Assembly: GCA_964016885.1 (NCBI GenBank)
Contig: OZ024740.1
Location: forward strand, 93,124,001-93,188,000
DNA: 64,000 bases
Origin: Eledone cirrhosa
Lineage: Eukaryota
Reading direction: 5' to 3'
Below the pieces are notes generated by a model that ran no database searches, was not told where the DNA came from, and saw only the letters and a program-made list of their open reading frames with translations. Of the stretch, positions 8,824-64,000 are shown piece after piece. A program made the position numbers and the translations under genes. Every line of letters begins with the position of its first letter. Position 1 is the first letter of the stretch.

Positions 8824-11128
8824 GTATATATATATATATATATATCTACATACACACACATATACATATACATATACATATACATAAGCACAGTACTACA
8901 CATATAAACACAATTAGATAATAAAATAAAATAAATAAATTTACAATATTTTAAAATACATTAAAATCTGTATGTAACTTCACAAAGAGATAAATAAAAA
9001 AGGGGGGAGGTACAAAGAGATAAATAAAAAAGGGGGAAGGTGCATGTATCAATGTGATATATTACACACAGGTAGTATGAGGTGCAAACCTAGGTACGTA
9101 TGTGGAACACGTAAGAATAACAAAACAATAACATCAGTAATAATAATTGTTCCAAAGAGGAACATGTGGAGAGTTGATATTCACGTTTGACGGAGTACAC
9201 ATTCAAGGGGACGCTTGGCCCAGTCACCATGGGGTATGCCACCGTGGTTGGGGTGTGCTGTTCTATATGTTTGCGGTATTTGACTGGACGACCGTGGACT
9301 CCGTGTTAGTCGGTCCCGGCATAGGCGATGTAGCTGCCCAATGTTGCGGGGCCCGGTCAGGCGTGCACCCTGGTTTACTTATGTTTGTGTGAATCTGGTC
9401 CCATGCCTCTAGCCTGTGCCACTCGGAGGATTCCATGCTGCAAATATGCATCTTCTCTGGTATCTGCGGGTCACGATAATTTCAGACTTCAGGTTGATCG
9501 CGTCATCTTTCAGTCTGAGTATATCCATGGCCTCGTGTAGGCATAATCGTCACTTTCTACTTCCAGCCGAATATGCCCTCACATGGCGAACGATTCTCCA
9601 TTCCAGTGCGTACGGAGTGCCTTGGTCTTTCAGGTTCCAAACCAGGTACGCTAAGCTAGTGGAGTGCCTTTTGCTTCAGTCCCTGAAGGAATTCGTGTGA
9701 TAATACATCCGCGATTTAAAGGTCGTGTATGTTGCGACGATGTAGGTGCGATGAGAATTTTCGGTTGTAAACAGACACTTGTATATCAGGACCTTCGTCA
9801 GGGATTTTTCCTGCAGGGGGCACTGGGTGCCCGCTTTGCAGTTAAAAGTTCTGTTGTCGGTTCTTTTGCATCTGATGTCTGGGCCTCGATCTGTTATGGC
9901 CCTCTCAGGGTTCGCAGGGTGTTGTTCCGCCGACACTGTGGTCTCCCCTATGCCACTCATTCCCTCCCGGCGCTGGCCCACATGACCTTCCGCGGGCGTT
10001 CCGGCCGCCTCGGGAGCTGGGTTGTTATTTGAGGGCTGGTCGCCGGGTTGTCCCTGGCGCTCCGATAGACGGACATCCTGTCGCTGCGGTTGACGGCCAA
10101 TGCTCGCCATCTTCACCGCGTTAGTTTTAGCCATGTAGTCGGCCATGTTAGATGCTGTGGAGAAGGAAAACTTCACCGTGTGGCGGTTGAAGATTTTGTG
10201 GTACTTGTTCGTCGGCGGAAAGCACTGTCAGTGGGTGTGTGTATGTGTGGGCGTATACGTACACACACATAGGACAGGGTTGTCTATGTGTTTATATGCG
10301 GGTACATTTACTTGTGTGTAGATATATGTACAGGTGTGTGTATATGTGTGTATGTGTGCTTATGTCTTAGGAATTGTGTCTGTCCTTCATGCCTATCAAT
10401 AAGGATATGCGTGTATGTGCGTGTGTGCGTGTGTATCCATGTATGTGTCTGAGAGTGTTTGTGGGTATGGATGTGATGATGTGCCCGAACGCCGATGTGT
10501 GCCTGTGTATGCGTGCACGTGTGTGTCTGCGCGTGTGTGCGCATATGCGTGCGTGTGAGACTGGATGTATTGCGCTGTTTAGGCAGGCGCCAATAAGCAT
10601 GTGGCGGTCGGTATCTGGATGTGAATGTGCCGGGGTTTGTGGAAGAGAGGGCGAGTGTGTGCGTGATTATATGTGTATGGGTGTATGTGTGGCTACACAG
10701 GTATGCGTACATATGTGTATGCATGAATGTGTGTGTGCCTGCGCGTGTGTGTGCATTTGTGTGTGTGTGTATATATTGGGTACATACTCTGGAGTGTGAA
10801 CATATGTGTGAGATACCGAACCCAGCAGGGCTCCATTGAAGTGTGTTTGACGGAAAATGGCCGACGACCCATGTTCCAGTAAATAGTGACCAGAATTTAA
10901 GAAGACGTAGAAAAAACAACAGCTAATGGCATGACAAGAGGGGAATATGTTTTTTAAAGGTGTTCTTTGAGAAAATTTGCTCCGCACCAACTGCCCGTGT
11001 CCGAAGGACCTGCAGCCGTATAATCAGCCAGATCCATAACGTGATCATGTCTCGAGCTACCTGCCGGCGAAACAATTGTAACACGCAATAAACTGTGTCC
11101 AAATGCATCACTGATTTTTTCGTTTTTT

Positions 11129-15029: not shown

Positions 15030-16496
15030 GTTTTGAAGCCTCGACAATGCAAATGGGTAAATTTCCGGGTAACAAGATCCGGTGGTGGAGAGAGAGATGT
15101 AAGTGTGTGTACATTGAAATGCGTGTTGTGTATAAGACGTGTAGAAGATTGAAGGAAAGAGTATAAAGGATAAAATTAAAATAAGAACACGAGAGAGAGT
15201 TACTTTGGGAGAGATTTAATTGTCCCTATATATTTCTGATTCACATCCATCAACTGGGGTTTTTTCCGGGGTGGGGGAAAGGTTTCTGTCGGAAAGGAGC
15301 GAAACACGTCCTCCGCTGTTTGTTGTTTTGAATACCTGAGGTATTCAGCAGAGCGCGCGTGCGCGTGAAATGGGGTGGGTCGGGCAGAGGTCAGCGGCCG
15401 AATGTGGGAGTGGGGTGGTGCTAGCTGTCACTCCATTATCTGCTTGTTAAATGTTACTGTGTGTGTGTGCGTATGTCGTTGCCTCGCTTGAGTGTGTGTG
15501 TGTTGTTGCCTTGTTCCTCTGTATTGGCAGTGTAGTATGTTCGTATGGTCGAATGCTACTGTGTATGTGTGCGTGCGTGTGTTGCTTCATCGTTTGTTAA
15601 CCTAAACCAGCCACTTCATTTCGCTTCTCTCGGATCGATTGTTTATTTGCGGTTCAAGGCGTTTGATAAAAAGTGCTTCCTTTTGAACGTAACGTGCCGA
15701 CGTTTCTTTCAGTCGCTAGAATTGTCACAATGGGCCTTCCGTCTTTGTTTCCGCATTTGTCTATGTGTTTCCGGAAAGACGAGGCCCTGGTTTTAGTGTG
15801 TTCCTTGCTCTGGATGTGCAAAGGTCGGATTGTGCTACCTATATAGTATTGGTTGCACCTGTCACATTCTATCTTATACACGACGTATGTGCGTAGGCAA
15901 CAGTTCGCATTGCGTATCGGGCAGTCTCTGAGGGAGCCCGTGTCAGTAGATTTCCCAGGTTTCCTGGAGAGGCATCTTCGCAGGGAGGGGCCCGACTGGG
16001 CCAGGTGGATGTGGAGGCCCTCCCTCCGTATAGCCTTGGGGATAGCGTTGGTGGTATTCTCGCCCAGGTGTAGCATTTTAAGGAAGCACTTGCCTTGGGT
16101 GCCACTCTGTCTCTTGCGTCTGGTTTCTTCTACTCTGTCTGTGAGCGAGGTAGGGTACCCGTTCGTCTCCAGCACCTTGAGGAATCGCTTCGTATGAGTG
16201 AGACCACTCGCGGGATCGCTGCATCTGTTTTTGATTCGCGCGATCTTGTTCGTGATGTATCCTCTTTTGGCACTGTTAGGGAGGGCGGACTTGTAGTTAA
16301 CGAACAGGTCCCTGCAGGCTGGCTTTCGGTAGAAGTTGCAGTGGATCCTTCCCTGTTCCGTGATGTTGATTCGGGAGTCGAGGAGGGCAAGTGACCCGTC
16401 TTCGTTGGGGTGTTCAACACTGAAGTCAATGTCCTCGTCCGTGTTGTTGAACGTCTCATAGATTCTGTTCGCCGTGTCTTGGGAAGATGTGAGGAT
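15030..16496 (-). mobile_element. 5'-truncated Penelope-like element (RT thumb + GIY-YIG + 3' UTR)
   Basis: ORF 15654-16175 reads CPIRNANCCLRTYVVYKIECDRCNQYYIGSTIRPLHIQSKEH; upstream of it are LALLD, FYRKP and LETNGYP. Confidence 0.85.
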
Positions 16497-16519
16497 GGCA
16501 ACCGAATGCAGTCATTCAA

Positions 16520-19500
16520 TGCCGTTTGTATCATTGTATTGGTAATTTAGAAGATACCCCAGGAGAGAGGTCTCGATTCGCTCAAATTTAACTTAACGAT
16601 CAAGATTATAGTGAATCGGAGGAAGATATCTGGATCAGTTGGCTGAAGTTGCCTGGAAATACAACTGAACTTGAACGGCAAAGGTTAAGTGATTTGATCC
16701 GTGATTTGCAACCATGACTTAGACAGTGTAATCATTATGTCATGGAATTCATGTTGGTGGCTGAACTGCAAAATGTTCAGCAGCAAACATTGGTGATTGT
16801 GGCTGACGCAGTTCCAATGAATCAACACGAACGGCGATATAATACCCCTGGAGGATTTCGTGAAGTTGCTGTGTTGATGGACGATAAGCCTGGATCGAGA
16901 GATATCGTCCTCAATCGCAGAGATGGTGGTCTCAAGAATATCAATGAGTCAAATAGGGCATACGATCCATTGCATTGTGTTATTTTATTCCCAAAAGGTG
17001 AAAATGGATGGAACATGTCTGTTCATTTAGATGATCATGAGAATCAGCATCAACAGGAGGTGGAAATAGACACAATAATTCAAATCGCGACTTTTACGCG
17101 TTCCATTTGAATGAGAGGAATCAACAGAGAAATGCGCAATTTCAAGCCAGCAGATTGTTCCAGGAATACTGTTGTATGGCATTCGCAAAGATCGAACAGA
17201 TCGAAAATCAAAGGCTATATTATATAGCTACACATCAGCAATATATCAGAGCTGAATTGTATAATGATATACAGGATGGGTTAACAGCCGATGCTGCCAA
17301 TTACAAGCAAATTGGTCGACGCATCATTTTGCCATCGTCTTTCATCAGCGGCCCGAGATATATGATCATTCGCTATCAGGATGCAATGGCTATTGTCAGA
17401 AAGTTTGGAAAGCCAGATTTGTTTATAACGATTACATGCAATCATGAATGGACTGATATTAAGGATGCACTTTTTCCAGGGCAACAGCCAAAGGACCGTC
17501 CTAATATTGTAGCAAGAATGTTCAAAAGATATCTGAAAAATAAAACGGATGATGTGGAAAAAGAGGGAATCTTTGGAGGTATAGTTGCTTGTACATACGT
17601 AATTGAATTCCAAAAAAGAGGATTGCCACATGCACATTTAGTGGCAATGTCAATGGTGCACAACCAATGCGGAGTGGCAAATCGGAAAGCGCCTTGCATG
17701 AACAATGGCCAATGCAGTAAGCACTATACGAAATATTTTGTCACGAACACTTCCGGGAACGATAGGAATGCTTATCCCTCATACAGAAGACGGTCACCTG
17801 CCGATGGCGGTTTGGTCGAAAATGTAAACGGTCGGCAGATTACAAATCAATGGGTTGTGCCATACAATCCATATTTGATTATGAAATATCGTTGTTATAT
17901 TAATGTGGAAATGTATAGCTCAGTGAAAGCTTGCAAATATCTATTCAAATATGTGTACAAAGGTCATGATCAGGCAATGATCAATGTCAGGAATGAGGAA
18001 GCGAATCAAGTAGATGAAGTTGGCAGGTTCCAGCATGTTATTTCGATTGGATCTAGCGAAGCTTGCTGGAGATTGTTCGATTTTCATCTCAATGAACGCA
18101 AACTGAGCCTTCAGAAAATGACGGTTCACTTAGAGAATAGTCAAATGGTCTGTTTTAAGGACACTAGAAGAGGTGTCGAAAGAATTGCTAACGCACCCCC
18201 TCCTAAGACGGAATTGACTGAGTGGTTCAAGCATAATAGGGAACATGACTTGAACCCGGATCAAAAGCAACTCTACTGCGATTCCCCTTCGCACTATACG
18301 TGGGATAAGAAGGGAAAGAAATGGAAACATACCAGGCTGTGTGTCAACATCTTGACTCCTTCAGGATGACACTGAATGGAATAACGCCATGGAAGCTGCA
18401 GGAACAACACAGATGCCAACTCAAATAAGGCAGTGGTTTGTCACGATACTAGGATTCTGCAATCCTGCCGATCGAAGAGAGTTATTTGAACGCCATTGGG
18501 GAATTATGGCTGATGATTTTAGGCATCATCTTCAGGTCGATGATGAAAATTTGATGAAGGCTATTTTTTTGCTCAATATTGCACAACTGCTTGAAGTTCA
18601 TTTCAAATGTTTAAGAGATTTCAATTTACCAATTCCTGATGAAAAACTGCGACAACGTGTCTTAGCATTGATCATGAGATTGCAGTTTAGACGGTTGCCA
18701 TTAGTTTGGAGGGAACTATCCAGTTTGTTCCACTGGAACAGCAACGTATTGTGGATGAACGTATGCCAATGTTGACCCAATCTCAGAGAGAATTGATCGA
18801 TGGCGTTCCCCACTCGATTTCCACTAATGAGCAACTTTGTGCTTTCATAGATGCTCCAGGAGGCACCGGAAAGACATTCGGTTTCAACACTATGTTATCG
18901 GCAGTCAGAGCTCAGAGGAATAGTGCTCTCCCTGTGGCTACCAGTGGGATCGCTGCCACTTTGCTGAATGGTAGAATGACCTTCCACTCATGCTTCAAGG
19001 CTCCATTGGCTCCGGATGAGTTGAGTGTCTGTAATATTAAAGGACAAAGTGAACACGCGGGCCTTATTATTTGAGACGAGTCTCCAATGGCACACATATA
19101 TTTGCTGGAGGCATTGGACAGAACTTTGAGAGATATCTGCGGTAGTGACCTGCCATTCGGTGGTAAGACTACAGTTCTATGTGGCGATTTCAGACAGGTG
19201 CTACCAATTGTTATGAATGCTCAAAGAGCGCAAATTGTCGAAGCATGTCTGAAAAAATCCCCGTTGTGACGCCATTTCAGAGTTTTGCGATTACACGATA
19301 ATATGCGACTTCGTATGTTCGGGCAAAACAAAGAGGCTGAGACATACGGCCGATGGTTGATGTAGTTGGGAAACGAGAAATTGCCACGTTGGTGATAATC
19401 AGACTGTAAGAATCCCAGACCATTTGGTCATGCCACTGAACCGACAAGCATTCATTGACTGGGTGTTCCCTTATTTGAATGCTTGTGGGCAGAATATCTC

Positions 19501-20170
19501 CTGCATATCGGAACGCGTTATTCTAACTCATACGAATGCAACGGTCGATGAAATAATTTCACAAGTAGCCGGAATCCTTCTTGGAGAGGAATGGTTATCC
19601 GTCAGTGCGGATGCAATGGAGCCTAATCAACAGAACAATATGGATGTTCCGACTGAGTATCTGAATACACTTCAAACACCCGGATTTCCCCCACATTCTT
19701 TCAGGTTGAAAAAGGGTATGCCGATTATTTTGCTTAGAAATATCAATCATAAAATGGGTCTGTGCAATGGTACCAGATTGATTGGTGAGAGATTAATTAA
19801 CGGAAGAGTTTTAGAAGCTAAACTCCCAGGCAGGGAGGAATCGGTTCTCATTCCGAGGATCATGCTGAGACCAAGTGAAGATCTGCTGCCATTCATTTGG
19901 CAAAGGAGACAGTTTGTCGTCAATTTGGCATTCTCCATTACTGTCAACAAGGCACAGGGACAGACTTTCAATCGATCGGTGTCTACTTGAATGATCCAGC
20001 ATTCAGCCATGGGCAACTGTATCTTGCTGCATCTCGAGTGTGCGATCCTGATGGTATAAAATGTGCAATTGATACCACTAATAGAGGAACAACCCTGAAT
20101 ATTGTCTATAATGAAGCTTTGAGCAGATGTATGCATAGCTTTAATGCTATCAATAAGCGACGTAAATGAT
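16520..20170 (+). pseudogene. Helitron RepHel (HUH Rep + PIF1-family helicase), disrupted and 5'-truncated
   Basis: YDPL, ILPSSFISGPRYM, GKPDLFITITCN, YVIEFQKRGLPHAHL, VVPYNP, KYLFKYVYKG, FIDAPGGTGKTF, GDFRQVLP, LLRNI...GLCNGTRL, AFSITVNKAQGQT and FSHGQLYLAASRV; stops, frameshifts and internal deletions. Confidence 0.93.
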
Positions 20171-43340: not shown

Positions 43341-44411
43341 TAAACAAATAATGAATAAACAATTCCTTATATTAAACAAAAAAAGTTCATTATTTAACGA
43401 TCGTTTCTAGGGTATATATGTGTTATAATTGGTATGCATATTCAACAGATCTATGTACAAAATTATACAAAATTATACAAATTATCAAGATTAAATATAC
43501 ATACCTAACACATATATACGCCGTCTTCAGAAATAATGAAGTATATTTATTGATAATAACAACAATTCAAAATATCAGTTCAAAATTGACCAATGAAAAC
43601 ACAAAGGGTTAAAAGCAGTTCGGTGTGTGTATATACATGTAAAATCCTTACACATATTTTACAATAATGTGTGTATAATTTGTATGCGCATACTAAAAAG
43701 ATGGATGCAAACACAAAATTTCAAGGTTAATATCTCTGTAAGCTTAATGCGCTGATAAGATGCGCATTGATACTTATGGAGTCAAGCATATAAATATATT
43801 TTTTCATACTCACACATATCAGTATAATCACACATACATGCGCGTATATGCATAAATATACACATAACCACGAACATACAAACACACACACTCCCCCACT
43901 CACATTTATATATGTGGATATAAAATCATAAGCACATAGAAATTAAGTCACTCACATAAAACACTGGCACACACATTTCAAGATCAAGATACAGAAATTA
44001 GGTGGGAGGGGGGGAGATCACAAATCTAACTTTAACTCTAATCCTTCTATTAGACTTATATGTCCCTCCAAATCAGATATTGGAATAATTAGTAAAAAAA
44101 TTTTAGATAGATTCATCCCACAAATAAGAAAATACGTTATTTTACCACTCTGGGAAAACACCTCCCAGGTAATTAATTGGTTTAAAAATATTAGGTGTAA
44201 ATCTTCTGCTTCTTTCCTACAATTTGATATAGATAATTACTATTCTTCTATATCACCCATACTCCTGAACAAAGCATTAATATTTGCTAAAAATAGATCT
44301 AATTTAACTTCGGATGACATTAACATTATTACACATGCTAGACTAACACTTATTGAATTTCAGAATGAATACTGGACCAGAAACACATACAGTAATCTTT
44401 TTGATATTACT

Positions 44412-45914
44412 ATGGGTTCAAGCGATTCCGCCCAAATTACTGATCTTGTGGGCCTCTTTCTCCTTTTCAACATAAATGCCTCTTTTCCCCACCTCAAAGG
44501 TGGTTTATATCGTGATGACTGTCTTCTTCTTTCTAACAACCTTAGCCTTTCAGAAATCGAAAAAAACAAAAAACATATTAGAACTTTCCTTAAAGACTAT
44601 TATAATCTTAATATTACTTTTGAAAAAACAAGTAAAGTAGTAAATTTCCTAGATATAACTTTAGATTTAGCTACGGGTATATACCAACCTTACCATAAAC
44701 CTAACCGAAACTTACATTACATACACTCACAATCTAATCACCCTAAATCTATCCTTAAAAACCTTGCATATAATATATCACTTAGAATTTCTAACCTTTC
44801 TTCTAACCAAGATGTATTTGATAAAAATGCGACCTTTTATAATGAAGCTCTAGATAGAAGTGGCCACAAAAATAGATTAGAGTATATACCTTCTACTAAA
44901 AATACTGAAAGCATACAGCATAATATTACCAACAAACACCAAATGAAAAGTACACACCTAAATGCCACCCACAATATACCCCAAAATACTAAATCTTCTA
45001 ATATAAAGTATAGTAACCCTCAAAAAACTACTCATCATACAACTATAATAAATATTAATAATAAAACTCCTAATAAAAAAGATAAAACACCTAAATCTAC
45101 AAATATAACTAAAAATAGTTGTGGTGAGATCATTAACATTAATCCTCCTAGTAAAAATCATGATACAACCTATAAAAATAATAAAAATAATAAACAACAT
45201 AGAAACCGTAATAGACGAGTTACTTGGTATAATGCTCCTTTTAATTTACAAGTTAAGGATAATATTGCTAAAAAATTTTTTTATATCCTTGAGAAAAACT
45301 TCCCGCCAAACCACAAATACCATCAAATCTTAAATAGGTCTACAGTTAAATTCTCATACTCTACAACAAATAACATAAAACAAAATATAAGTGCATATAA
45401 TGCATATAAATGTAAGAAAACCATAAGTATACCACCAGTACATCAAATTAACAATAATATCTCCTCAAATACAGAATTAACGAAAGGATGTAACTGTAGA
45501 AACAAAACAAACTGCCCATTAAAAGGGAATTGTCTTGTTAACAACATAGTCTATAAATGTAATGTTAAAACTAAAGATTCTATTTGCTCATATATAGGAG
45601 CTACCTCTAACAATTTTAAGACAAGGTTTAATACCCACAAACATAGTTTTAAAAATGCCGCACTGGCTAATACAACATCTCTAGCAGAAAAAATCAATAG
45701 TTATAAAAATAAGAATATAAAATATGATTTGACCTGGAGTGTGCTCAAAAGAGCCACCCCTTATCAAAATAATAGAAAGGAATGTAGATTATGTTCCCAG
45801 GAACTATTTGAAATAATGAAGTCTAAGGATATCTTATTAAATAAACGACAGGAATTAATTATATCGTGTAATCATAAACTAAAAAAAACATTTAAATATT
45901 ATAAACCTAATTAA
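44412..45914 (+). CDS. PLE polyprotein, RT to GIY-YIG endonuclease (homology extends upstream to ~44050, where it is truncated)
   Basis: MGSSDSAQITDLVGL, GGLYRDD, VNFLDITLDL, SNHP, CNCRNKTNCPLKGNCL, NIVYKC, SYIGATSNNFKTRFNTH, CRLC and CNH. Confidence 0.88.
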   Translation: MGSSDSAQITDLVGLFLLFNINASFPHLKGGLYRDDCLLLSNNLSLSEIEKNKKHIRTFLKDYYNLNITFEKTSKVVNFLDITLDLATGIYQPYHKPNRNLHYIHSQSNHPKSILKNLAYNISLRISNLSSNQDVFDKNATFYNEALDRSGHKNRLEYIPSTKNTESIQHNITNKHQMKSTHLNATHNIPQNTKSSNIKYSNPQKTTHHTTIININNKTPNKKDKTPKSTNITKNSCGEIININPPSKNHDTTYKNNKNNKQHRNRNRRVTWYNAPFNLQVKDNIAKKFFYILEKNFPPNHKYHQILNRSTVKFSYSTTNNIKQNISAYNAYKCKKTISIPPVHQINNNISSNTELTKGCNCRNKTNCPLKGNCLVNNIVYKCNVKTKDSICSYIGATSNNFKTRFNTHKHSFKNAALANTTSLAEKINSYKNKNIKYDLTWSVLKRATPYQNNRKECRLCSQELFEIMKSKDILLNKRQELIISCNHKLKKTFKYYKPN

Positions 45915-50711: not shown

Positions 50712-52403
<1,692 letters not shown>

Positions 52404-53324: not shown

Positions 53325-53813
<489 letters not shown>

Positions 53814-54067
53814 ATAACTCCAGAACTTATATCTTCGTTGAGTGGTCCCTATCCGCATACTGAAGTACTGAATTTTACCAACCCTTACTTTCTTGCTATA
53901 TATATATATATATATAAATATATACACCTGCACCCTTACATACATATACATACACACACATATATATACACACATATATATACATATATACATATATACA
54001 CGTATGCACATATACACACACATATATATATATATAATAGGCTGTTGGTGGTGGTGTCTTATTCATT

Positions 54068-56289
54068 TTGGAAAACGCTCCACTATGATAGAAGCCGTAT
54101 GAACTCAACATTAGAAAGTGGTGTAAACAACAAATTCGGTTTTAGGACTTGTAAAAACCCACCCACCAACCCACTATTAGATGCATTTGAGCAGGACCTT
54201 ATGAACTTAATCCTTAAAATTAAATTCAAAGGACGCAACACCAACAGCAAATTACAGAAAGATATAAAAAAACTACTGGACGACCTTAAAAACACCAAAG
54301 GAATTGTAGTAACAGCGGACAAAACATCAAACCTGTACACTATGGATTGCACTACATACAACAACTTCATTCGAAAAGAATTACATAAAAAATATAGAAA
54401 AACGAGTGAAGTAACCCTTAAGCACATCAATGATGAGGCATGCGAAATAGTGAAAAATGTCGGAATCGAAGATAGGACAGGACCACTCTTACCGGAGGTA
54501 CCCACCTTCAATCTTAAGGACCACAAGGTAAACTTTGATAATGACCCTAAAATTAGGTTAATCTGTCCCTCTAAATCAGATATAGGTAAAATAAGCAAAT
54601 ATATCTTAGATATATATGATAGAATCATCCCCCAAATTAAGGCTAAGGTTAACATTAAACTCTGGGGGAAGACCCAAGAAGCAATAAGATGGTTTAATAG
54701 CATTAGCAATAAGAATAAATCTAAGTTTATCCAGTTTGATATCGATGAATATTACTCATCGATATCACCTGAAACTTTGAATAGAGCCATTAAGTTTGCT
54801 AAGGATAACTCTGACCTTACAAACGATGAAATTAAGATTATATTAGAAGCTAGGAAAACTATAGTCAAATTTGAGAACAGTTATTGGGTACGTAAAGATA
54901 GACCCTCTAACGTTGACATAACAATGGGCTCTAACGATTCGGCGGAAATAACTGATATTGTGGGGTTATTTATCGCCTTTAGACTCCAGGAAAAATTCAG
55001 CAATCTCCACGGCAGAATATACCGCGACGATGTTCTCCTCCTAGCTAAAAACCTTAATAACCAAAAACTAGAAAAACTACGCAAAGATATAAGAAAACTA
55101 CTACTCGAAACAGGACTAACTATAACATATGAATACAACCTTAAAGTAGTTAACTTCCTGGATGTCACACTCAATTTAAACTCTGGTTTGATTAAACCGT
55201 TTCATAAATTGAATGAAAATCTCAAATACGTAAATGTTGGGTCTAACCACCCCATCTCTATAATTAAATCTATCCCTAAAAATATTTCCCTTAGAATCTC
55301 GGGTCTATCTTCTAACATACAAGTATTTAAGGAACACGCCGAGTACTACGATAACGCCCTTAGTAAAGCAGGCTACCTCAACAAAATAGAGTACATAGAT
55401 GGGAACAATCAAAACACCCAAAATAAATCCCACATAGGTAAATATAATAACACAACACCAAACCACACTTACTACCATAGTATGCACACCAGTAAACCAA
55501 CAAACAAAACTAATAGAAAGCGATGCAAAGAGTACTTATGGTATAACCCCGAATACAATAGTTCCATTAGTACAAATTTACCAGTACTCTTCTTTAAAAT
55601 AATTAAAAGACATTTTCCCACATCACACAAATACCACAAAATCCTAAACCCTACCACTATAAGACTGTCATACTCTACAGCGTTAAACCTTGAACAACAC
55701 ATAAAAAAGATCAATACTAGAAGGTTAAACGAAAACACTGAGAACTTAAGTACAAAGAACACAAAAAAAACAGTAAACAATACACTACAGAACATAAATA
55801 AACCACACCTAAGTTCGTCCGCAATACTACTCCAGAGAAAACCCAACGTACACAACTGTAACTGCACCTATCCTGACAACTGCCCCCTCGGCAATAACTG
55901 CCTGGAAAAAAATATTATTTATAAGTGTACCATTAAATCCGGAGGCAACGAGTGGTATTACGTGGGATCAACGGCAACATCGTTTCAATCTCGATTGTAT
56001 AGGCATTCTTACTCAATAAAACACCAGAGCCAAAGAAATGTAACAACTTTAGCAGAAAAAGCTTGGACGCTCAGGGATAGCGATCAAAAGTTTACCCTAA
56101 AATGGGTAAAAATTAGCTAAAACCCAAAGCTTTTCCAGGAGCCAAAATTTCTGCAAATTGTGTAATCTTGAGATTTATTACATAATCACGCACAAGAAGA
56201 AACTGCTGAATAACAGAATTGAACGAACATTATTCTGCCGTCACAGAACTAAAACCCTTTTTTCCCACTACAAGCCGAACATTACATAA
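54068..56289 (+). pseudogene. Near-full PLE RT-GIY-YIG ORF (probably Hydra clade); one frameshift at ~56110; slightly 5'-truncated
   Basis: ADKTSNLY, LKDHK, IRLICPSKSDIG, QFDIDEYY, DITMGSNDSAE, IYRDD, CNCTYPDNCPLGNNCL and WYYVGST; the shifted frame continues FCKLCNLE...CRH to TAA at 56289. Confidence 0.9.
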
Positions 56290-58216: not shown

Positions 58217-59905
58217 GTAGATAAACCTACCAAAATGTACAAATTAAAGATAATATACCTAAAAAAATGTTTACTATCCTAGAGAAAAAGTTCCCGCCAA
58301 ACAACAAATACCATAACATTTTAAATAGATCAACGGTTAAATTCTCCTACTCAACAACCAAAAATATACAACAAAATATAAGTGCCTATAATGCATATAA
58401 ATGTAAAAAAACCATGAATATACCACCAATACATCAAACTAACCATAATACTAAAATAAACCACAGTAAACCACCATCTCAGTCACATACAACAAGTCGT
58501 GAAAATTCCACACCTAATTTGACTATCTCCTCTGATACAGCATTCACGAAAGGTTGTAACTATAGAAACAATGCAAATTGCCCATTAAAAGGAAATTGCC
58601 TTATTAATAACATAGTATATAAATGTAAAGTTAACACTAAGGACTCAACTTATTCATATATAGGAGCTACTTCTAACCAATTTAAAGTAAGATATAATAT
58701 CCACAAACACAGGTTTAAAAATGCCGCATTAGCTAATACAACATCTTTAGCTAAAATAATTAATAATTATAGAAAAAGGAATATATATTATAACCTGACC
58801 TGGAGTGTGCTCAAAAGGGCCACCCATTATCGAAATAATAGATATGAAAGTAAATTATGTTCCCAGGAACTTTTTTGAAATAATGAATACTAAGGATATC
58901 CTATTAAATAAACGCTAGGAATTAATTATATCATGTAATCATAAACTGAGAAGAACTCTTAAATATTATAAACCTAATTAATATACACCTTAGAAATTAT
59001 TATAATAACACTTTTTTTAAATTAGTTAACCTATAATTAATATTCTACTACTAATGAACTGCATAATTTTATTTCCCTTTTACGGCTATATTTTCATAAA
59101 ATTTATACCAATATGTATACATATAAACTATTTTAATTTCAGGTTATGATTCTATGTTCTTTATAATCTATATAAGTTTGTTATTTCTGACTAATAAATT
59201 TACCCCCCCCCCCAGACCAATAATAATTATTATTATTTTTTTATATTCCCTTCATTTTTAACAGCACTCTTCAATTACATCTAACTCTTATTTATCATAT
59301 CTATATGAATTAATATAAAATTACCAATATAAATATACCTATCAATTTAATTAATTAATTTTCTTTTTATAGATGTAAATTCCCTATATTTTAAGTAAGA
59401 TTGATATGTTTCACTAACACATTTAACGTAAAATGTCATTCTCCTTAGATATCTACATTAGCATTATTCTTTTATAACATCAATTTTTCGTGTACCTTTT
59501 ACCGACTTGACCTATTTTCATCCCGAAAATAATATTTTCATTCATCAACTCTTTCCATTCAAAATTGAAATCTGCTTTCCTCTACCCCTAAATTAGAGTT
59601 ATATTACTACTATTCTACCATCTTGACCACTTACTACCTTTCTATTGGTCAATTCAAAACCTGTTCCCAAACAGACTTCTTATATTAAATCTTTGTTGGT
59701 TTTCTTCAATAAACAAATATTATTATTTCTGAAGACAGTATATATATGTGTAGGTATGTATATTCCCTCTGATAGTTTGTAAAAATGTTACATAGATCTA
59801 TATGATATACATACCAACACAAACATATATATCCTAGAAACGATCGTAAAATGATGAATTGTTTAATATAAGGAACTGTTTCTTTGTTTTTATTCATTAT
59901 TTTTA

Positions 59906-59910
<5 letters not shown>
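58215..59910 (+). mobile_element. 5'-truncated PLE, same family as 43335-49925
   Basis: ORF 58267-58878 is highly similar to the C-terminus of 44412-45914; its 3' end (59700-59910) matches 49700-49920. Confidence 0.9.
59720..59858 (+). ncRNA. Long-stem-II hammerhead motif, paralogue of 49718-49872
   Basis: ttattattt CTGAAGA c ag ... ct a GAAAC gatc GTA aaatgatgaa. Confidence 0.68.
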
Positions 59911-59964
<54 letters not shown>

Positions 59965-60074
59965 TGAAAAAAATGAAAACGAAATTTCATTTCTCACTCT
60001 TAGTATGGCACTTACTTAAATGTAAGTATGTATGTATACGTACATACATATATGTATACAGACATACAGTAGCA

Positions 60075-60145
<71 letters not shown>

Positions 60146-60425
60146 GCATACAGGTACACATACATATATGCACGCATCAGTTTAGCCGGCGTTTATTATA
60201 ACGCCGGCCGCTTTGTTCGTTTGTTTGTCAACAAAGCGAACAGCCTGAATTTATGCCATACGGTGTTAAGGCAACCACGTCACCTTTTTGTTCAACACTG
60301 ACACAGGAACGATGTACTAGTTTAAAGCTTGTTAGCTATCATCAGCACCGTTTACCCATCTGCCAGATAGTTGAACGTTCGAAAGTATATACTTTCCTTA
60401 TGAAAATTAACGGCTGAGCAGCCTA

Positions 60426-60433
60426 ATTTGCAT
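60426..60433 (-). promoter_or_regulatory. Octamer motif ATGCAAAT, present in each complete array unit ~75 nt upstream of the HHR
   Basis: Exact octamer sequence; function not shown. Confidence 0.35.
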
Positions 60434-60586
60434 ATTGAGTGAGTTAAATCGATCAGGCATACCGAAAACGATAAGTTGAAAAAAATGAAAACGAAATTTC
60501 ATTTCTCACTCTTAGTATGGCACTTACTTAAATGTAAGTATGTATGTATACGTACATACATATATGTATACAGACGTACAGTAGCA

Positions 60587-60684
<98 letters not shown>

Positions 60685-61136
60685 TATACACATATGCATA
60701 CAGGTACACATACATATATGCACGCATCAGTTTAGCCGGCGTTTATTATAACGCCGGCCGCTTTGTTCGTTTGTTTGTCGACAAAGCGAACAGCCTGAAT
60801 TTATGCCATACGGTGTTAAGGCAACCACGTCACCTTTTTGTTCAACACTGACACAGGAACGATGTACTAGTTTCAATCTTGTTAGCTATCATCAGCACCG
60901 TTTACCCATCTGCCAGATAGTTGAACGTTCGAAAGTATATACTTTCCTTATGAAAATTAACGGCTGAGCAGCCTAATTTGCATATTGAGTGAGTTAAATC
61001 GGTCAGGCATACCGAAAACGATAAGTTGAAAAAAATGAAAACGAAATTTCATTTCTCACTCTTAGTATGGCACTTACTTAAATGTAAGTATGTATGTATA
61101 CGTACATACATATATGTATACAGACGTACAGTAGCA

Positions 61137-61218
<82 letters not shown>

Positions 61219-61403
61219 TATATACATATATATACACATATGCATACAGGTACACATACATATATGCACGCATCAGTTTAGCCGGCGTTTATTATAACGC
61301 CGGCCGCTTTGTTCGTTTGTTTGTCAACAAAGCGAACAGCCTGAATTTATGCCATACGGTGTTAAGGCAACCACGTCACCTTTTTGTTCAACACTGACAC
61401 AGG

Positions 61404-61448
61404 AACGATGTACTAGTTTCAAGCTTGTTAGCTATCATCAGCACCGTT
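61404..61448 (-). ncRNA. Minimal type I hammerhead of the tandem unit (identical at 61934-61978, 62486-62530, 63026-63070, 63560-63604; mutated at 60308-60352 and 60858-60902)
   Basis: Minus strand reads aacggtg CTGATGA t agct aaca agct t GAAAC ta GTA catcgtt; 7-bp stem I with one G-U; palindromic stem III ACTAGT. Confidence 0.8.
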
Positions 61449-61682
61449 TACCCATCTGCCAGATAGTTGAACGTTCGAAAGTATATACTTTCCTTATGAA
61501 AATTAACGGCTGAGCAGCCTAATTTGCATATTGAGTGAGTTAAATCGGTCAGGCATACCGAAAACGATAAGTTGAAAAAAATGAAAACGAAATTTCATTT
61601 CTCACTCTTAGTATGGCACTTACTTAAATGTAAGTATGTATGTATACGTACATACATATATGTATACAGACGTACAGTAGCA

Positions 61683-61760
<78 letters not shown>

Positions 61761-62208
61761 TATACACATATGCATACAGGTACACATACATATATGCACG
61801 CATCAGTTTAGCCGGCGTTTATTATAACGCCGGCCGCTTTGTTCGTTTGTTTGTCAACAAAGCGAACAGCCTGAATTTATGCCATACGGTGTTAAGGCAA
61901 CCACGTCACCTTTTTGTTCAACACTGACACAGGAACGATGTACTAGTTTCAAGCTTGTTAGCTATCATCAGCACCGTTTACCCATCTGCCAGATAGTTGA
62001 ACGTTCGAAAGTATATACTTTCCTTATGAAAATTAACGGCTGAGCAGCCTAATTTGCATATTGAGTGAGTTAAATCGGTCAGGCATACCGAAAACGATAA
62101 GTTGAAAAAAATGAAAACGAAATTTCATTTCTCACTCTTAGTATGGCACTTACTTAAATGTAAGTATGTATACGTACATACATATATGTATACAGACGTA
62201 CAGTAGCA

Positions 62209-62300
<92 letters not shown>

Positions 62301-62764
62301 TATATACATATATATACACATATGCATACAGGTACACATACATATATGCACGCATCAGTTTAGCCGGCGTTTATTATAACGCCGGCCGCTTTGTTCGTTT
62401 GTTTGTCAACAAAGCGAACAGCCTGAATTTATGCCATACGGTGTTAAGGCAACCACGTCACCTTTTTGTTCAACACTGACACAGGAACGATGTACTAGTT
62501 TCAAGCTTGTTAGCTATCATCAGCACCGTTTACCCATCTGCCAGATAGTTGAACGTTCGAAAGTATATACTTTCCTTATGAAAATTAACGGCTGAGCAGC
62601 CTAATTTGCATATTGAGTGAGTTAAATCGGTCAGGCATACCGAAAACGATAAGTTGAAAAAAATGAAAACGAAATTTCATTTCTCACTCTTAGTATGGCA
62701 CTTACTTAAATGTAAGTATGTATGTATACGTACATACATATATGTATACAGACGTACAGTAGCA

Positions 62765-62852
<88 letters not shown>

Positions 62853-63304
62853 TATACACATATGCATACAGGTACACATACATATATGCACGCATCAGTT
62901 TAGCCGGCGTTTATTATAACGCCGGCCGCTTTGTTCGTTTGTTTGTCAACAAAGCGAACAGCCTGAATTTATGCCATACGGTGTTAAGGCAACCACGTCA
63001 CCTTTTTGTTCAACACTGACACAGGAACGATGTACTAGTTTCAAGCTTGTTAGCTATCATCAGCACCGTTTACCCATCTGCCAGATAGTTGAACGTTCGA
63101 AAGTATATACTTTCCTTATGAAAATTAACGGCTGAGCAGCCTAATTTGCATATTGAGTGAGTTAAATCGGTCAGGCATACCGAAAACGATAAGTTGAAAA
63201 AAATGAAAACGAAATTTCATTTCTCACTCTTAGTATGGCACTTACTTAAATGTAAGTATGTATGTATACGTACATACATATATGTATACAGACGTACAGT
63301 AGCA

Positions 63305-63386
<82 letters not shown>

Positions 63387-63838
63387 TATACACATATGCA
63401 TACAGGTACACATACATATATGCACGCATCAGTTTAGCCGGCGTTTATTATAACGCCGGCCGCTTTGTTCGTTTGTTTGTCAACAAAGCGAACAGCCTGA
63501 ATTTATGCCATACGGTGTTAAGGCAACCACGTCACCTTTTTGTTCAACACTAACACAGGAACGATGTACTAGTTTCAAGCTTGTTAGCTATCATCAGCAC
63601 CGTTTACCCATCTGCCAGATAGTTGAAAGTTCGAAAGTATATACTTTCCTTATGAAAATTAACGGCTGAGCAGCCTAATTTGCATATTGAGTGAGTTAAA
63701 TCGGTCAGGCATACCGAAAACGATAAGTTGAAAAAAATGAAAACGAAATTTCATTTCTCACTCTTAGTATGGCACTTACTTAAAGGTAAGTATGTATGTA
63801 TACGTACATACATATATGTATACAGACGTACAGTAGCA

Positions 63839-63924
<86 letters not shown>

Positions 63925-64000
63925 TATACACATATGCATACAGGTACACATACATATATGCACGCATCAGTTTAGCCGGCGTTTATTATAACGCCGGCCG

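Follow-up and report, generated by a model that had tools for sequence, protein, structure and literature searches.

How a tandem array of hammerhead-bearing repeats came to lie at one end of a 64,000-nucleotide stretch of the Eledone cirrhosa genome (contig OZ024740.1 of assembly GCA_964016885.1, positions 93,124,001 to 93,188,000; hereafter the window) is the question addressed here. A first-pass annotation of this stretch had proposed a non-LTR retrozyme mobilised by PLEs. Mobilisation of animal retrozymes by PLEs has so far been proposed from co-occurrence and terminal homology, and a circular template has been suggested; one account calls the dependence of retrozymes on PLEs a possibility (PMC8969392). 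The class itself is already known. What the family described here adds is direct integration evidence for mobilisation by a PLE, together with a ready test system: thousands of young insertions with mapped starts, ORFs that could encode the helper, and a diverged sister family by way of natural control. Because young insertions, sister family and candidate helpers occur in one genome, the questions of mobiliser and template become testable.

The window ends in a tandem array of non-coding units

The array enters the window at 59963 and runs to its last position, 64000, with the minus strand as its inferred RNA sense. Units start at 59963, 60475, 61025, 61571, 62101, 62653, 63193 and 63727, which gives seven complete units and one partial unit with periods of 512–552 bp. 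Beyond the window the array continues for 3,968 bases, to G000:C1:93191968, so that the window holds units 1–8 of 15 unit starts in total; the final unit is broken off just 5' of stem I of its hammerhead. A single unit consists of 452 bp of near-invariant sequence and a (TA)n tract of 60–120 bp (in unit 3, 61141..61234 on the minus strand, predicted to form the tip of a long hairpin). With the tract left aside the units are 99–100% identical, in agreement with the annotation's seven or more near-identical copies. They are also non-coding, as had been claimed: the only reading frames, of 130–134 codons, run through the (TA)n tract on the strand opposite to the ribozyme. The unit has no PBS or PPT, none of 68 mapped insertions shows LTR structure, and no ORF with RT and GIY-YIG domains lies inside the element, which is not an autonomous PLE.

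At its left end the array closes, as had been noted, with a run of seven T residues followed by (TA)n. This (TA)n target at the 3' junction occupies 59909..59958, and the flank outside the element (59693..59908, plus strand) consists of a terminal repeat from another PLE family, which ends in the same (TA)n. The tract does vary in length, as the annotation stated, but its description of the unit as unusually long was overstated, since related units measure 418–536 bp overall, the excess is mostly (TA)n, and retrozyme consensus lengths of 51–972 bp have been reported (bioRxiv 10.64898/2026.07.22.740005).

Each complete unit carries a type I hammerhead motif

Seven minus-strand type I hammerhead motifs occur in the window, one per complete unit. 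The motif comprises a 7-bp stem I with one G.U pair, CUGAUGA, a U.U followed by a 4-bp stem II, and GAAA; stem III is one A-U pair capped by a palindromic CUAG loop, and the triplet is GUA. Stem I, stem III and triplet are thus as first described. The motif is unmutated in units 4 (61934..61978), 5 (62486..62530), 6 (63026..63070) and 7 (63560..63604) and in unit 3 (61404..61448), where the cut after GUA is predicted between 61411 and 61410, all on the minus strand. The unit 2 hammerhead (60858..60902, minus) has a single mismatch in stem II, and in unit 1 (60308..60352, minus) GAAA has become UAAA; with G12, the catalytic base of the hammerhead core, changed, the latter is predicted to be inactive. 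Hence the claim of one type I hammerhead per unit holds for the motif in all seven window units, but the exact motif is found in only five of them because of these two changes (11 of 15 over the whole array).

An Rfam search returned no match in the array at the gathering score, although Hammerhead_HH9 scored below threshold at the right place (61393–61455, minus strand; 18.5 bits against 52, E 0.078). Class membership is read here from the core CUGANGA / GAAA / UH with stems I and II, which is present, while the motif stays below the Rfam gathering score. Matches of the mir-297 type at the E-value level reflected (UA)n composition and were rejected. Weak activity would be predicted from the U.U that opens stem II and from a stem III of only one pair. 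Pairing between two CUAG palindromes was computed at −6.8 kcal/mol, and a dimer route via a palindromic stem III has been described (PMC4209133). The folding model also places an internal loop 6–7 bp out along stem I.

The predicted RNA fold varies in a compensatory manner

In the predicted fold, the ribozyme sits at the tip of a long interrupted arm that extends stem I (61385..61469, minus strand), and the window unit and the unit of the sister family (below) are predicted to form helices in the same order. The folding z of the window unit, −13.3, is inflated by its UA tract; the sister unit, which has no long tract, scored −10.7. A fold computed for the circle was set aside, since the stretch used contained the mutated ribozyme of unit 2. 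When 11 units selected to be diverse were compared, two-sided changes appeared at 26 of 106 predicted pairs, as compared with 10.3 in shuffles (0 of 500 reached 26) and 3–8 with a slid structure; these controls overstate the signal because the structure itself came from these 11 related sequences. Compensatory changes also fall within the same predicted fold in the sister family. The covariation is support for, rather than proof of, constraint on the RNA fold.

Stem I pair 3, scored by eye in the first 100 variant-core matches listed, was U.G in 47, G.U in 38, A-U in 13 and U.U in 2, a variation that reflects few events. Core position 7, a tolerant position in hammerheads, is variable among variant-core copies.

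The family is young and dispersed

Pattern searches of the genome found 10,672 copies of an exact 32-letter core and 24,598 dispersed copies of a looser variant core. Control patterns read backwards gave no genome match for either search, so these counts are not due to chance. Copies of 341 bp are 100% identical on seven contigs. Genome-wide copies with independent junctions rule out an assembly artefact, which had also been considered. The word satellite, which the annotation used, suits the tandem units but is misleading as a label, since insertions span a median of 1.97 units (51 of 68 exceed 1.3 units) and are spread genome-wide.

Older subfamilies have units of 418–433 bp with short TA tracts. 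Six sequencing runs of unrecorded kind, none of them listed as RNA, were returned as holders of the sequence; contigs of four were aligned, one of which gave no result. Two runs from the same organism, X1 and X6, differed strongly over 60900–61700 of the window in allele shares at 61427 and 61437, where the letters of an older subfamily made up about half in one run and nearly all in the other. A diverged sister family, found via the variant-core search, has 1,317 exact ribozyme copies, in which stem II starts with the textbook G-C pair and the triplet is GUC. This family (L155, G000:C1:163575681-163577143) has a unit of 469–470 bp and a tail of ~70 nt, and long arrays of it lie at C1:95.62 Mb and C1:14.04 Mb.

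A occupies the cleavage site in 15,358 copies, and a different base does so in 207. More than half of 100 listed non-A copies (of the 207) belong to one local array at G000:C3:12272037-12321287, ~50 kb or more in length, with more than 50 units among those listed carrying G at the cleavage position. This GUG array, predicted to be uncleavable, represents local growth at the DNA level of a ribozyme that is likely dead.

Insertions begin at two fixed sites and invert as in PLEs

Insertion ends were mapped at 65 loci (12 best matches from the search that gave the 341-bp copies, 40 consecutive loci from the head of the exact-core list and 13 further loci from that list), which yielded 69 clusters of at least 200 bp; one at a locus edge was dropped, leaving 68 insertions. 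When 3' ends were scored, the ribozyme strand was taken as the RNA sense. The 109 RNA 3' ends comprised 54 long ends (unit positions 1–9) and 41 short ends (48–66), ~55 nt apart, and at least four of the remaining 14 were splits at very long TA tracts (L039, L060, L071 and L078). Flanks were TA-rich at 47 of 54 long and 34 of 41 short ends (81/95), against 8.6% of 30-mers in the window. Two arms were present in 41 of the 68 insertions, all head-to-head with their 3' ends outward and none simply tail-to-tail; 26 were one-armed and one was compound. Where both ends could be classed, a long end was paired with a short end in 28 of 29 cases (~6e-8, fair-coin binomial). The same pairing was seen by eye in 17 of 17 inverted sister-family insertions with both outer ends among the rows listed; two further insertions were unresolved and 59 rows lay outside the listing. 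Both start sites have a few A/U letters in common with the target. The 5' ends and inversion points are scattered along the unit, those inversion points at positions 116 and 452 being partly artefacts of a query split at the TA tract. Target-site duplications could not be read, the junctions lying within (TA)n.

In the window array, a PLE-like 'tail' (59963..60016, minus strand) separates the two fixed 3' ends, the long one at 59963 and the short one at unit position 55; it holds a hairpin and a U-rich end, with the short end placed by the model in the hairpin loop. Loci of the older subfamilies (C1:11021 and others, L094–L113) show the same two ends, at positions ~4–7 and 55–65, and inverted arms.

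Two fixed 3' ends, an inverted 5'-truncated second copy and a microsatellite target bias are all traits of PLE-mobilised elements. PLEs are described as targeting (TA)n, as leaving inverted copies with truncated 5' ends and as carrying a tail that is often confined to one end (PMC8557442; PMC3846280, which also gives the head-to-head polarity), and with an anole PLE in vitro the tail equals the distance between two RT start sites (PMC11167929). At the loci studied here, two ORF-bearing PLE families of this genome each had two end sites, used by 29 of 33 copies of one family and by 26 of 27 of the other, largely in TA, with PLE tails of ~85–110 nt in this genome. The proteins of both families carry RW[KR], DKT, CxCx5C, CxxC and CxH motifs, the set given for the (TA)n-targeting Hydra clade (PMC8557442), and motif matching suggests that both are Hydra-type. 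With the fixed double 3' end, the head-to-head arms and the (TA)n targets, mobilisation by a PLE, which had been a guess, is now well backed, and taken by itself we consider it highly probable; the two ends and the target bias are also those of the resident PLEs. The near-strict pairing of long and short ends on opposite arms constrains how the PLE enzyme handles two DNA ends.

PLE ORFs with Hydra-type motifs lie in the window at 43947–45914 (+), 53721–56120 (+), 58225–58878 (+) and 9676–10227 (−), and a minimal hammerhead of its own, at 53714, precedes that at 53721–56120. The window also holds a PLE-like RT/GIY-YIG fragment that is more divergent (15654–16511, −) and has no BLAST match to the other window PLE ORFs. 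Pfam assigned no family to five PLE-like ORFs, and Atlas grouped one PLE-like ORF with RT/GIY-YIG/HTH_animal clusters. A solitary canonical hammerhead of another family, with a GUCC stem II and a GUU triplet, occupies 50745–50805 (−).

Multi-unit insertions are most simply read from a circular template

Only 2 of 109 5' break points fell within 10 nt of the cut site, against 5 expected, and 12 of 12 inspected copies with a non-A cut site were point changes rather than truncations. As 5' ends do not accumulate there and the inspected copies are not truncated, the cut linear monomer is not the template, although read-through of the cut site was partly selected for, the loci having been picked by their ribozyme core. 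That all 68 insertions span this site was discarded as a circular argument. In 29 multi-unit loci, 3–19 alleles are fixed across all units and both arms, and the differences between units are mostly singletons; the mean difference is 3.6 between opposite arms, and the median 17 between loci. Two loci depart from this pattern, the older L129 and a 45-unit array with mixed alleles and higher-order repeats. Each insertion therefore stems from one haplotype, and many haplotypes have founded multi-unit insertions. A circular template would account for such one-haplotype, multi-unit insertions most simply, and circular RNA has been proposed as the template of animal retrozymes (PMC7229834).

Our preferred reading, which we put at a probability of roughly 0.55, is that the family is a protein-free non-LTR retrozyme inserted in trans into (TA)n by a PLE enzyme from a unit-length circular RNA. 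Features read from DNA (tandem, non-coding, dispersed units; type I hammerheads in consecutive units; a highly self-paired predicted fold) support its placement with the animal non-LTR retrozymes, for which tandem type I hammerheads in at least two consecutive units have been used as a criterion (bioRxiv 10.64898/2026.07.22.740005). Arrays would be transcribed into multimers, the hammerheads would cut after GUA, likely as dimers via the CUAG palindrome, and a host ligase would close the monomer into a circle, the last two steps by analogy with tested retrozymes. A PLE RT/GIY-YIG protein, likely of the (TA)n-targeting Hydra type, would then cut the target. Reverse transcription would start at two internal sites ~55 nt apart, one per DNA end, consistent with the observed ends and their pairing. 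Each cDNA would pass the cut site for the 0.1 to 9 units seen in the DNA, until the two cDNAs run into each other head-to-head or a single arm is joined to the flank, both of which arrangements are found. A few arrays would later grow by DNA-level duplication, as the 45-unit array has done. If a PLE does insert a 450-nt RNA in trans into (TA)n, a minimal cis-element for the reaction is defined.

A bolder form of this reading, which we put forward tentatively, holds that a viroid-like circle without kinship to the resident PLEs captures the PLE enzyme by its shape alone, and that an enzyme dimer, starting at two fixed sites, rolls the circle onto both ends of a cut (TA)n, with thousands of two-armed multimer insertions as the outcome. 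If true, these insertions would record, across an animal genome, target-primed reverse transcription of the rolling-circle kind.

A circle is not the only template compatible with these insertions. The family may instead be a non-autonomous PLE derivative, an ORF-less terminal repeat whose parent is lost or unfound, copied from linear multimers or by template jumps, with the hammerhead in another role and no circle. This explains every insertion mark equally well. Uncut RNA is the main substrate of the anole PLE in vitro, and its ribozyme mutants still insert (PMC11167929), so a linear multimer accounts equally for read-through of the cut site; homogeneous arrays could likewise arise from homogeneous source arrays. 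Of nine Xenopus retrozyme dimers, one was cleaved in vitro, and these retrozymes are related to PLE terminal repeats (bioRxiv 10.64898/2026.07.22.740005); ORF-less, head-to-tail multicopy derivatives of Chlamys PLEs are known as well (PMC8557442). Flush joins to PLE ORF pieces at four loci (the window array, L052, L055 and L108) may mean template switching, or may be chance, since PLE ORF remnants are common in this genome. On the other hand, many haplotypes each have their own homogeneous multi-unit insertion, which requires repeated passage through one unit, and the ribozyme has canonical helix sizes, unlike the long helix II of the resident PLE ribozymes. Nor did 20 inspected loci of 282 variant-core matches contain an autonomous, ORF-bearing element homologous to the unit: they were family copies, the sister family, two without a unit match and one with a distant PLE piece. 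The PLE abutting the array and the PLE fused at L052/L055 both have terminal repeats unrelated to the unit. That no PLE with a homologous terminal repeat turned up among these also weighs against the preferred reading. We regard a PLE derivative copied without a circle as possible, though less probable than the retrozyme with a circular template.

An older retrozyme copy lies behind the 3' end of the L052/L055 PLE in 1 of 13 loci. At L108 (4466–7589), an older retrozyme arm and a 5'-truncated PLE endonuclease end are joined in opposite orientations; the joined pair occurs twice, as an inverted duplication, and may be a chimeric insertion.

LINEs, DNA-level spread and the abutting PLE are improbable explanations of the family

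Twin priming yields inverted 5' parts, and LINE remnants are present in the window (ORFs at 2–2662), which would suit a SINE-like element moved by a LINE. However, twin priming leaves a single fixed 3' end together with an internal start that varies, whereas the insertions here have two fixed outer ends that pair as PLE ends do; neither poly(A) nor a 3' end in common with LINEs was seen, and we consider this route very improbable.

An ordinary satellite spread by unequal exchange or extrachromosomal DNA circles, with the hammerhead as a relic, would fit the higher-order duplication and mixed alleles of the 45-unit array, the ~50 kb GUG-type array on C3, and the two changes that units 7 and 9 of the window array have in common. 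Fixed strand-specific ends, head-to-head polarity, (TA)n targets and compensatory RNA pairs are all unexpected under this explanation, which is slightly less probable still. DNA-level spread applies only to later array growth; as a dispersal route it is refuted by the end statistics.

The annotation had held that an adjacent PLE ORF would turn the array into amplified pseudo-LTRs. Such an ORF is indeed present: a PLE RT fragment (a 341-codon frame and its continuation) runs on the same strand into the 5' end of the array without a spacer and is broken off at the junction, before its endonuclease. The reclassification does not follow, because all 14 other copies inspected (of 39 listed; 98% identical) continue into their own endonuclease and an unrelated terminal repeat, without a match to the retrozyme unit outside TA-like parts; that family also carries a different hammerhead. 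For this PLE the explanation is refuted by those copies, and it is the least probable of all. The join reflects either a target deletion or a template switch.

Relation to known retrozymes and PLEs

Like the metazoan non-LTR retrozymes (axolotl Rtz331/Rtz353, newt satellite 2, mussel and coral), the family is built of tandem, non-coding and highly self-paired units that each contain a single type I hammerhead, and it occurs in a genome that also has PLEs (PMC7229834). Its hammerhead resembles HHR_Amex1 of the axolotl in the one-pair helix III with a palindromic tetraloop, and HHR_Amex2 in the U.U at the base of helix II (PMC7229834). It differs in a unit of 420–570 bp, against 150–450 bp, and in the internal (UA)n hairpin; expression and circles are described for the metazoan retrozymes, whereas this family is known from DNA alone (PMC7229834). 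We found no report in the open-access literature of a tail and inverted-arm footprint for any retrozyme, nor of a cephalopod retrozyme. The Xenopus and other vertebrate retrozymes belong to the same class and have the same proposed helper, but there the link to PLEs consists of pseudo-LTR homology and co-occurrence, in contrast to an integration footprint here, with no homologous PLE among those examined (bioRxiv 10.64898/2026.07.22.740005).

With the EN+ PLEs (the Hydra clade and the anole Poseidon PAc) the family has in common two 3' ends, a head-to-head copy, partial tandems, 5' truncation, (TA)n targets and a hammerhead upstream of the tail; it departs from them as a retrozyme without an ORF, with many units per arm, and with a tail of ~55 nt (~70 in the sister family) against 30–40 bp (PMC8557442, PMC11167929). 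Both retrozyme starts overlap the target by a short AU stretch; PAc, by contrast, initiates without homology (PMC11167929). Chlamys non-autonomous elements such as MRC1 are likewise ORF-less, head-to-tail multicopy and moved by PLEs, but their 3' end is similar to that of their autonomous partner, and Chlamys elements are described as mostly without canonical hammerheads (PMC8557442).

Other broken frames in the window

Two further stretches of the window contain broken frames on the plus strand. Those at 2–2662 encode a reverse transcriptase that we take to be of LINE type, and those at 16718–19990 presumably derive, judging by their motifs, from a Helitron Rep/helicase.
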